Of a stretch of 64,000 nt of DNA, positions 62,132 through 63,463 are shown one piece after another (position 1 is the stretch's first letter; each line of letters begins with the position of its first letter). The position numbers and the translations under genes are program-made. Origin of the DNA: Escherichia coli (GTDB taxonomy: Bacteria; Pseudomonadota; Gammaproteobacteria; Enterobacterales; Enterobacteriaceae). Under the pieces are notes generated by a model. The model was not told where the DNA came from. It saw only the letters and a list, made by a program, of their open reading frames with translations, and did not search any database. Location of the stretch: the NCBI RefSeq assembly GCF_013315695.1, contig NZ_CP054353.1; one strand, written 5' to 3'.

Positions 62132-63463
62132 ATGAGCGAATTGACCGATCTTTTATTGCAAGGGCCGCGTTCTGCCCCGGAATTGCGCCAGCGTCTGGCA
62201 ATCAGTCAGGCGACGTTCTCACGCCTTGTTGCCAGAGAAGATCGGGTGATTCGCTTTGGTAAAGCACGGGCAACGCGATATGCACTGCTGCGTCCTTATC
62301 GCGGAATTGAGCGTATTCCCGTATGGCGAGTGGATGATGCCGGAAAGGCGCATAAATTCGCCGACATTCAGTTGTGCTGGCCGCAGGGAAGTTGTCTGGT
62401 AACAGGCGCAGATGGCGACGAACGGTGGTTTGATGGTTTGCCCTGGTATTTGACCGATCTGCGACCGCAGGGGTTTTTGGGGCGCGCGTGGGGCAGGAAG
62501 TTAGCCGCGCAACTGAATCTTACTGAAGATATCCGTCTCTGGCAGGAAGAAGATGTGCTCTACGCCCTGACCGTATTTAGCGGTGAATACACCGGCGGCT
62601 GGCTGGTCGGGGAGGGGAATTATCAGCGATGGATTACTGCACAACGCCCTGCGGCAATTCCTCTGGATCAAAAACTCACCCATTACGAACAACTGGCAAG
62701 CGATGCACTGGCAGGAGAAATTGTGGGTTCTTCTGCGGGCGGTGAGCAGCCAAAATTTACCTGCTATGCACAAACGCCGTCAGGCAATAAACATGTGCTG
62801 GTTAAATTCACCGTGCCACAGCAAACCGCGGTCAGCCAACGTTGGGGCGACTTGCTTATTGCGGAATCTATTGCCGCGCAAATCCTGCGCGACGGCGGGA
62901 TCCACGCCATCGAGTCAACGGTGCTTGTAACAAGTAACAGGCAGGTATTCCTTGAAGCGGAACGATTTGACTGCAAAGGTAACGATGGTCGCTTGCCCAT
63001 TGTGTCGCTGGAGGCGGTGCAGAGTGAGTTTATCTCTTCTCCGGGATCGTGGCCGGAGGCTATGCGCCGTTTGTGTGAGCAACAACTTGTCACTCACCAG
63101 AGCGTGGCGCAAACAGAAGTGATCTGGGCGTTTGGGCGACTTATCGCCAACAGCGATATGCACGCAGGCAATTTATCATTTTATTTATCTGAACCACCAT
63201 TTGCGCTGACGCCCGTCTACGACATGCTGCCGATGGCCTATGCACCAAACAGCGCCGGAATGTTGCGTGATGCTGCCATTGAGGTGAGGTTTGATCTTAA
63301 CGTCAGTAAAAGTGCATGGTTAACGGCGATCCCGCTGGCGCAGCAGTTCTGGCAAACGGTCGCCGGAGATCCGCGTATCAGCGAGGCATTTCGCCACATT
63401 GCACAAGAAATGCCGGAAAAAATCCGGCAAATCGAAGGGAAAGTTGCCCGCATGGGCGGGTAA
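62132..63463 (+). CDS. yjjJ: HipA-family kinase-like protein YjjJ
   Basis: 443-aa ORF; sequence recognised and position between deoD and lplA. Confidence 0.85.
   Translation: MSELTDLLLQGPRSAPELRQRLAISQATFSRLVAREDRVIRFGKARATRYALLRPYRGIERIPVWRVDDAGKAHKFADIQLCWPQGSCLVTGADGDERWFDGLPWYLTDLRPQGFLGRAWGRKLAAQLNLTEDIRLWQEEDVLYALTVFSGEYTGGWLVGEGNYQRWITAQRPAAIPLDQKLTHYEQLASDALAGEIVGSSAGGEQPKFTCYAQTPSGNKHVLVKFTVPQQTAVSQRWGDLLIAESIAAQILRDGGIHAIESTVLVTSNRQVFLEAERFDCKGNDGRLPIVSLEAVQSEFISSPGSWPEAMRRLCEQQLVTHQSVAQTEVIWAFGRLIANSDMHAGNLSFYLSEPPFALTPVYDMLPMAYAPNSAGMLRDAAIEVRFDLNVSKSAWLTAIPLAQQFWQTVAGDPRISEAFRHIAQEMPEKIRQIEGKVARMGG

Follow-up and report, generated by a model that had tools for sequence, protein, structure and literature searches.

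The stretch of Escherichia coli DNA analysed here, 64,000 nucleotides of contig NZ_CP054353.1 (hereafter the window), contains the gene hipH (yjjJ), which encodes a HipA-family kinase, and a set of four short repeats directly upstream of it. An initial annotation made from the sequence alone had placed a HipA-family open reading frame (ORF) of 443 residues between deoD and lplA, and this ORF is present with an ATG start codon. The identical DNA in RefSeq carries the annotation deoD, yjjJ, lplA, and the gene of the K-12 reference genome NC_000913.3, b4385, is now named hipH. The Pfam domain HipA_C (PF07804) matches residues 200–428 with 74.2 bits (E = 1.5e-20; cut-off, 30.5 bits), and the NCBIfam equivalog NF007297, “HipA family toxin YjjJ”, matches over the full length with 676.2 bits against a cut-off of 401. 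The allele is of the B2 type, with 99.9–100% identity to NU14, APEC O18 and NZ_OZ547117. The gene itself is already known and characterised (PMC8262856, PMC9948734, PMC11452175). As far as the searchable literature shows, the two subjects of this text are undescribed, namely a conserved module of promoter and predicted operator in front of hipH and a presence/absence polymorphism of the gene within E. coli.

The 9-mer ATCTATTCA occurs in four exact copies in the window, all within 100 bp before the hipH start codon, against 0.33 copies expected by chance. When one mismatch was allowed, the remainder of the window was at chance level. Three of the copies, designated O1, O2 and O3, form a tandem array with a period of 12 bp, and the fourth is a distal repeat designated OD (Table 1). 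The promoter was located by cross-genus conservation and then compared with the Reg-Seq data. A strict sigma-70 consensus scan of the promoter gave no match, and the E. coli hexamers TATACT and TAATAA are weaker than those of other genera. Reg-Seq in K-12 worked from a computed yjjJ start at 4,621,716 and gave an RNA polymerase (RNAP) footprint from −24 to +19 (PMC7567609). After coordinate mapping this footprint corresponds to window positions 62055–62098, the “−35” activator footprint (−18 to −6) to 62061–62073, and the “−10” footprint (+9 to +22) to 62088–62101; the footprints map to the same elements and thus agree with the placement of the −35 and −10 from conservation. An RpoD promoter in the deoD–yjjJ spacer, with a −10 slightly further in (TCTATT, inside O1), was also reported by Shimada in 2014 (PMC3946193). 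The real transcription start is probably at the 3' end of O1, at about 62102–62104 of the window or about 4,621,739–4,621,741 in MG1655, with O2–O3 as the leader. The nominal Reg-Seq start lies approximately 23 nt upstream of the position implied by the RNAP footprints of the same study, and the published site coordinates for the yjjJ promoter are therefore offset. O2 and O3 make up the short 5' untranslated region (UTR), and no Shine-Dalgarno (SD) sequence is visible before the ATG.

The yjjJ promoter was classed by Reg-Seq as having two new repressor sites, one of which is co-extensive with the RNAP site and was attributed to MarA (PMC7567609). The other (+30 to +45) has no assigned factor and maps to window positions 62109–62124 (TCTATTCACGAATCTA), a stretch made up of O2 and the beginning of O3. 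The first 5 nt of O3 fall inside this site, which stops within O3 because the mutagenised region ends there. The text part of the supplement to the 2025 Reg-Seq follow-up contains no yjjJ entry.

Table 1 Features of the hipH locus, in window coordinates.
Feature	Position	Strand	Basis
deoD intrinsic terminator, 13-bp stem then T-run, distal repeat directly after	61996..62030	+	terminator scan, inverted repeat
Distal repeat OD, ATCTATTCA, 65 bp upstream of O1	62031..62039	+	exact 9-mer
−35 element TATACT	62068..62073	+	cross-genus conservation, Reg-Seq “−35” footprint
−10 element TAATAA, 17 bp past −35, fused to O1	62090..62095	+	cross-genus conservation, Reg-Seq “−10” footprint
Tandem repeat O1, ATCTATTCA, overlaps −10 and predicted transcription start	62096..62104	+	exact 9-mer
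Tandem repeat O2, ATCTATTCA, initial transcribed region/5' UTR	62108..62116	+	exact 9-mer
Tandem repeat O3, ATCTATTCA, ends 3 nt before ATG	62120..62128	+	exact 9-mer
hipH (yjjJ) coding sequence, 443 residues	62132..63463	+	ORF call, HipA_C, NF007297, RefSeq/K-12 annotation
Winged helix-turn-helix, residues 1–55 (predicted)	62132..62296	+	AlphaFold2 models, pLDDT 87–93
Four-stranded beta sub-domain, residues ~60–101, joins helix-turn-helix to kinase	62309..62434	+	secondary structure of both models
Gly-rich loop GSSAGGEQPKF, residues 199–209	62726..62758	+	invariant in 27 orthologues
Catalytic motif SDMHAGN, residues 341–347 (D342)	63152..63172	+	D342, H344, N347 invariant
Mg2+-binding motif YDMLPM, residues 363–368 (D364)	63218..63235	+	Y363, D364, L366, P367, M368 invariant
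lplA 3' part, convergent with hipH	63464..64000	−	ORF call, RefSeq annotation

The conservation of the repeats was examined in 80 hipH loci from species-representative genomes. In Enterobacterales the distal copy lies near −100 and the other three at about −36, −24 and −12 before hipH, and in Betaproteobacteria, where HipH is only ~40% identical, a tandem triplet is found at −38, −26 and −14. With at most one mismatch allowed, motif matches have a 185-fold higher density in the 150 nt that precede hipH than in the remainder of the 80 loci. In 74 of 81 loci the best three-site chain outscored every one of 1865 control windows, and a consensus-free measure of 12-bp self-similarity was above the 99th percentile of controls in 60 of 81. 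Across 186 repeat units, conservation is at least 94% in the ATTCA core and 76–89% in the ATCT half. Stacking of 27 Enterobacterales loci on O1 gave a common order of distal site, ~27 variable nt, CTTTAC, 17 nt, TATAAA joined to O1, O2, O3 and the ATG. The −35 in this stack is a near-invariant CTTTAC (CTTTAC[C/A] in other genera), and the −10 of the other genera, TATAAA, abuts O1. The distal copy, with at least 8 of 9 positions matching, is present in all 27 loci, at exactly 65 bp in 21 of them and at 63–66 bp in every one. In Pantoea and in all non-enteric (Beta- and Gammaproteobacterial) loci the neighbours deoD and lplA are absent and the repeats are kept, which indicates that they travel with hipH and not with deoD.

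The spacer between the distal repeat and the −35 element (62040–62067, ~27 nt) is hypervariable, unlike the conserved sites on either side: it shows only ~46% identity between E. coli and E. albertii, two species with unchanged repeats and 96% identity in HipH. The copy number of the 12-bp unit upstream of hipH is four in AR_0069 and Yersinia, five in locus L097 and at least four in locus L153, and this variation suggests replication slippage within the predicted operator array.

The sequence of the repeat changes with that of the recognition helix of HipH. Most loci combine a helix SQ(A/P)TxSR with the repeat ATCTATTCA. In three loci, from Rheinheimera, Alishewanella and Alkalimonas, the helix is DRSTxTR and the repeat is AT(C/T)GATGCA with the 12-bp period retained; specifically, Rheinheimera HipH has the helix DRSTITR and the repeat form ATCGATGCA. 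Pantoea A4 carries the substitution Q26P, and all four of its repeats, the distal copy among them, read ATCGTTTCA; a clade with the wing GQKK(G/S)SRY has the repeat TWnAATTCA. This covariation, though made up of few independent events, points to HipH itself as the reader of the repeats.

A PDB sequence search found no solved HipH structure, the best match being HipT (E = 0.04). The AlphaFold2 model of HipH had a predicted local distance difference test score (pLDDT) of 87.4 and a predicted template modelling score (pTM) of 0.86. A fused N-terminal DNA-binding domain, which the initial annotation had suggested looking for, was found in the models as a winged helix-turn-helix (HTH) at residues 1–55, consisting of three helices and a beta-hairpin wing (pLDDT 93 when modelled alone). 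Foldseek superposed it on HlyU, SqrR, CzrA, BigR and NolR at 1.5–2.4 Å over 52–55 residues, and the ArsR/SmtB structural matches had probabilities of 0.96–1.00 at 21–31% identity. Pfam gave only sub-threshold matches for this domain (MarR_2, E = 0.03–0.09). The recognition helix is I24-SQATFSR-31 and the wing is G43-KARATRY-50. Among 35 diverse orthologues, L8, T28, R31, G43, Y50 and L52 of the HTH are invariant, and P12, S25, Q26, S30 and R46 are nearly invariant. The winged helix and the beta sub-domain together make up an N-terminal extension of ~100 residues, as expected of the HipH family. According to these models, HipH carries in cis, as a fused ArsR-like winged helix, the DNA-binding function for which hipBA relies on HipB.

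The kinase core has positive domain, equivalog and fold matches. In the Foldseek search of the PDB with the HipH model, the top 31 matches were HipA, HipT and CtkA structures, with E values down to 1.7e-10. The catalytic motifs, on which the initial annotation had made the kinase assignment depend, are present and invariant in an alignment of 27 HipH orthologues with identities down to 47%, and so is K225 (VKF). A published kinase-dead mutant of YjjJ is altered at positions 342 and 364 (PMC9948734). With phosphoproteomics and an in vitro assay on K-12 YjjJ, Gratani et al. demonstrated kinase activity and autophosphorylation at Ser200, Ser201 and Ser217, of which Ser200 and Ser201 fall in the Gly-rich loop; the substrates are RpmE and CsrA, and over-expression of HipB in trans rescues YjjJ toxicity (PMC9948734). 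YjjJ was renamed HipH, clade X of the Hip tree, in 2021 by Gerdes et al., who stated that the control of the kinase “remains unknown” and that the HTH “may function to bind DNA” (PMC8262856). Liao et al. reported that the HTH is indispensable for HipH toxicity, that cyclic di-GMP (c-di-GMP) binds HipH with a KD of 7.6 µM, and that c-di-GMP raises hipH transcription only via the native promoter (PMC11452175). They also claimed a DNase activity of HipH and proposed c-di-GMP as its antitoxin, and HipB did not inhibit the reported in vitro activity (PMC11452175).

The initial annotation had described the gene as present in K-12 and consequently not novel. This is correct, but hipH is not a core gene of E. 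coli: it is present in 1346 of 5426 complete genomes (24.8%). In 4058 genomes (74.8%) a 455-bp interval with a gene for an 87-residue Xre-type HTH protein is found instead, on the opposite strand and 31 bp after lplA. The xre gene is AT-rich (41.7% GC), which suggests foreign DNA; it is found only in Escherichia and Shigella, in some strains as a pseudogene. Two blocks alone are common to the hipH and xre alleles, namely the deoD flank including the distal repeat (94.7%) and the tandem array (97.3%). Immediately past the ATG the homology stops, and O3 contains the stop codon of the xre gene. The idea that the xre allele is a degraded hipH was considered and rejected, as no protein or DNA similarity extends beyond the two conserved promoter blocks. 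In E. marmotae, which lacks hipH, three of the four repeats have substitutions and the spacer is unchanged. The repeats of hipH-less strains were also considered as evidence of a second binding factor; this was set aside, as the E. marmotae substitutions, in the few sequences available, fit a vestigial operator. Judging from the few sequences examined, the repeats in the xre allele are consistent with a vestigial operator that outlasted the replacement of the coding region.

Two assemblies (Logan SRR13921544 and SRR18740011) were excluded from the comparison; they carry the xre allele with nearly every G as A and are apparently bisulfite-converted. In FDAARGOS_944 (locus positions 3574–4711), the distal repeat region is cut off from the rest by ISEc60 fragments and an IS1A that sit between the deoD terminator and the xre allele. 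Truncated HipH products of 328 and ~245 residues appear in the E. coli protein clusters with tens of sequences each, and a Pantoea-like locus (L161, 437–700) has the array followed by an internally deleted hipH. These truncated and deleted forms suggest recurrent pseudogenisation.

We consider it likely that HipH represses its own transcription through its winged helix acting on the repeats over the hipH promoter, which would then be its operator. As in an autoregulated HTH repressor, conserved repeated sites lie over the −10, the start and the leader of the gene itself, and the site covaries with the recognition helix, although in few independent events. HipH molecules would bind the repeats head-to-tail through the winged helix, over their own −10, start site and leader, and HipH bound at O1–O3 would repress the promoter, so that a dangerous kinase stays scarce. 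By looping the DNA, the distal site may make the complex more stable. Any signal that lowers the affinity of HipH for DNA would de-repress the gene. Binding of c-di-GMP would be the most economical release signal, because c-di-GMP binds HipH and induces hipH only through the native promoter, and autophosphorylation of the Gly-rich loop would be an alternative. For the fuller prediction, in which the array is a control element of HipH that is autorepressed by the kinase and released by c-di-GMP or by Gly-loop autophosphorylation, we judge the chances to be slightly better than even.

Several observations weigh against autorepression. ChIP-exo (chromatin immunoprecipitation with exonuclease treatment) of myc-tagged YjjJ at its native level in K-12 gave no binding peaks, in a study whose authors believed that YjjJ has no HTH (PMC8464067); an autorepressed and scarce HipH may be below the detection of this method. 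The O2–O3 repressor site was called by Reg-Seq in only one of nine conditions (heat shock), and the overlapping upstream repressor site was attributed to MarA (PMC7567609). Binding of H-NS was flagged in the deoD–yjjJ spacer by Shimada in 2014 (PMC3946193). E. coli genomes without hipH, 75% of the total, still carry almost intact repeats, and the covariation comprises only three or four independent lineage events. A metagenome scan for the three-copy array returned 95 matches, 80 of which were retrieved and classified: only 24 were hipH-derived (14 hipH, 9 xre alleles and 1 internally deleted hipH), and 44 were unrelated perfect 12-mer tandem repeats. When only arrays with differing linkers and a sufficiently long downstream sequence were counted, 20 of 28 were hipH-derived.

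The reverse association, that an array implies hipH, was rejected as not clean in the metagenome scan, and the pattern of the array is by itself no marker of hipH. The unrelated 12-mers with ATCTATTCA have identical linkers and many copies, come from environmental metagenomes, and often lie inside satellite DNA of the TCTA type.

Three other explanations of the repeats were weighed against autorepression by HipH. It is unlikely that they are the site of another trans-encoded regulator (MarA, H-NS or other), with the HTH of HipH serving, for example, nucleoid targeting for toxicity. The assignment of MarA to the promoter-overlapping site, the H-NS flag in the spacer, the lack of ChIP-exo peaks and the localisation of HipH over the whole nucleoid would all fit such a regulator. 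However, the “MarA” site coincides with the RNAP footprint and stops at the first 2 nt of O1, and the O2–O3 site has no assignment. MarA is known as a regulator from enterobacteria, which counts against it as the reader. The repeats go with hipH into unrelated genomic surroundings, in Betaproteobacteria and in Pantoea, and change in step with the HipH recognition helix. Retention of the repeats in E. coli strains without hipH would also favour another regulator, but in hipH-less Escherichia they show early decay. Still less probable, in our view, is that the tandem copies act mainly as RNA, the O2–O3 leader being a translational enhancer or a protein- or ribosome-binding site. With the predicted start in O1, O2–O3 would indeed be transcribed, no SD sequence is visible, the last repeat ends 1–3 nt before the ATG in most Enterobacterales, and HipH, a kinase of L31 and CsrA, co-purifies with ribosomes. 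Against this, the fourth copy, at its fixed 65 bp and upstream of the −35, would escape transcription, and O1 directly adjoins the −10. The array of the Rheinheimera group, at −97 to −60, precedes a promoter-like element, and that of Pantoea has a separate SD-like sequence after it. There is also no Rfam match and no conserved RNA structure (z-score −1.7, zero compensatory pairs). Roles at the RNA level and as a DNA operator are not mutually exclusive.

We regard it as very improbable that HipH is a conventional type II toxin, with a HipB encoded elsewhere as its antitoxin, and that the repeats are slippage-prone DNA without a regulatory role. Slippage could account for the variable copy number of the 12-bp unit (4 in AR_0069, 5 in L097) and would be in line with the unrelated perfect 12-mer tandem repeats with the same 9-mer in metagenomes. 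It accords poorly with a repeat whose sequence, position relative to the −10 and 65-bp distal copy are kept across bacterial classes while the intervening DNA is ~46–50% identical, and whose linkers differ between copies in most hipH arrays, unlike those of satellite repeats. An effect of repeat mutations on hipH expression was, moreover, already suggested by Reg-Seq. The HipB operator is a palindrome, TATCC-N8-GGATA. With this consensus, no match with up to two mismatches was found in 61966–62131, and the whole window contained 14 matches against 17.3 expected by chance; upstream of hipH there is accordingly no operator of the HipB type. The rescue of YjjJ toxicity by HipB over-expression favours a type II arrangement, and the failure of HipB to inhibit the reported in vitro activity of HipH (PMC11452175) argues against it.

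The surroundings of the gene contain no hipB-like partner on either side, as the initial annotation had stated in noting the lack of a small upstream HTH gene. The upstream gap is 166 bp (61966–62131) and contains the deoD terminator, the repeats and non-ATG ORFs of 38–58 residues. A hidden small antitoxin ORF among these was considered and rejected, as the frames cross the terminator and the repeats; a Pfam scan of the two longest (58 and 41 residues) gave no match. hipH is monocistronic, with no adjacent co-transcribed antitoxin gene found, and across the 80 orthologous loci the repeats directly precede the kinase ORF. The deoD terminator is kept in both E. coli alleles of the deoD–lplA interval. 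Downstream, the stop codons of hipH and lplA abut at 63463/63464 with zero spacer, and therefore the convergent transcripts must overlap; the yjjJ–lplA pair is listed as a convergent excludon (PMC12288877). The order deoD–hipH–lplA is kept across Enterobacteriaceae, and deoD–hipH also in Yersinia, Serratia, Erwinia and Rahnella; this speaks for vertical inheritance of hipH, although only 24.8% of complete E. coli genomes have the gene. The description of the gene in the initial annotation as a possible single-gene toxin-like kinase holds as far as a HipA-family kinase without a partner is concerned, but understates its conserved position between deoD and lplA across Enterobacteriaceae, apparently not on a mobile module. 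None of the defence-system protein models of PADLOC-DB matched HipH at E ≤ 0.01, and no known RNA family (Rfam) was found in 61900–63600 at E ≤ 1. An inverted repeat after the AUG (62135–62161/62229–62255; 27 nt, 78% complementary), which brackets the HTH-coding region, was considered as a translational control hairpin and rejected: its fold z-score was −1.73, 12 of 200 shuffled sequences folded as well, and it is not conserved outside Escherichia, with zero compensatory pairs.

The repeat array offers a testable handle on how a solitary toxic kinase is restrained, which was stated to be unknown (PMC8262856), and on the action of c-di-GMP “at the promoter region” (PMC11452175). Four 9-bp sites, two or three putative contact residues and naturally occurring specificity variants can be probed, and the array makes HipH a candidate factor for the orphan Reg-Seq repressor site. 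If the autorepression model is true, the promoter-dependent induction of hipH by c-di-GMP would be explained, and HipH would form a one-protein circuit of sensor, repressor and toxin for a HipA-family kinase, conserved from Enterobacterales to Betaproteobacteria. Conclusions on persistence or biofilm drawn from hipH of K-12 or uropathogenic E. coli cannot apply to the ~75% of complete E. coli genomes that have the Xre gene instead.

The closest known system is K-12 YjjJ/HipH itself (b4385, P39410; clade X), which is the same gene at the same locus. HipH of the window shares 97% identity with the representative protein of the main YjjJ cluster of E. coli, and its DNA is 95.8% identical to K-12-lineage strains. 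The K-12 intergenic region is of equal length with the same four repeats, and no functional difference between the B2-type allele and K-12 HipH is apparent. HipBA shares with HipH the HipA-type kinase fold (Foldseek E = 1.7e-10 to 4pu4; also 3dnv and 3tpt), an autophosphorylated serine within the Gly-rich loop, the aspartates for catalysis and Mg binding, and toxicity on over-production. Both have several operator sites over the promoter, with autorepression known in HipBA and inferred for HipH. In contrast to HipBA, HipH has no separate HipB, its fused module is an ArsR-like winged helix and not an Xre-type HTH, its sites are not palindromes but direct repeats of 9 bp with a 12-bp period, and its substrates are RpmE and CsrA and not GltX (PMC9948734). 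The HipT kinase of HipBST (E. coli O127, Legionella) has a colinear kinase core (PMC8262856), is found among the structural matches (7wcf, 7vkb and 8ezr) and has the same two conserved Gly-loop serines. HipBST is, however, tricistronic with a HipS antitoxin and a separate HipB, whereas HipH is a single polypeptide with an N-terminal HTH and beta sub-domain. HipL (HIRAN) and the EzeT-type cis antitoxin domains likewise combine a toxin-like enzyme and a regulatory or DNA-binding module in one polypeptide from a monocistronic operon (PMC8262856), but the types and order of their domains are unlike those of HipH, and a comparable operator array was not found described in searchable papers. The N-terminal domain resembles ArsR/SmtB repressors in its three helices and beta-hairpin wing, with superpositions at 1.5–2.4 Å. 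ArsR proteins are small homodimers that bind inverted repeats, whereas in HipH the match covers only the first 52–55 residues, which are attached to a kinase and face direct repeats.

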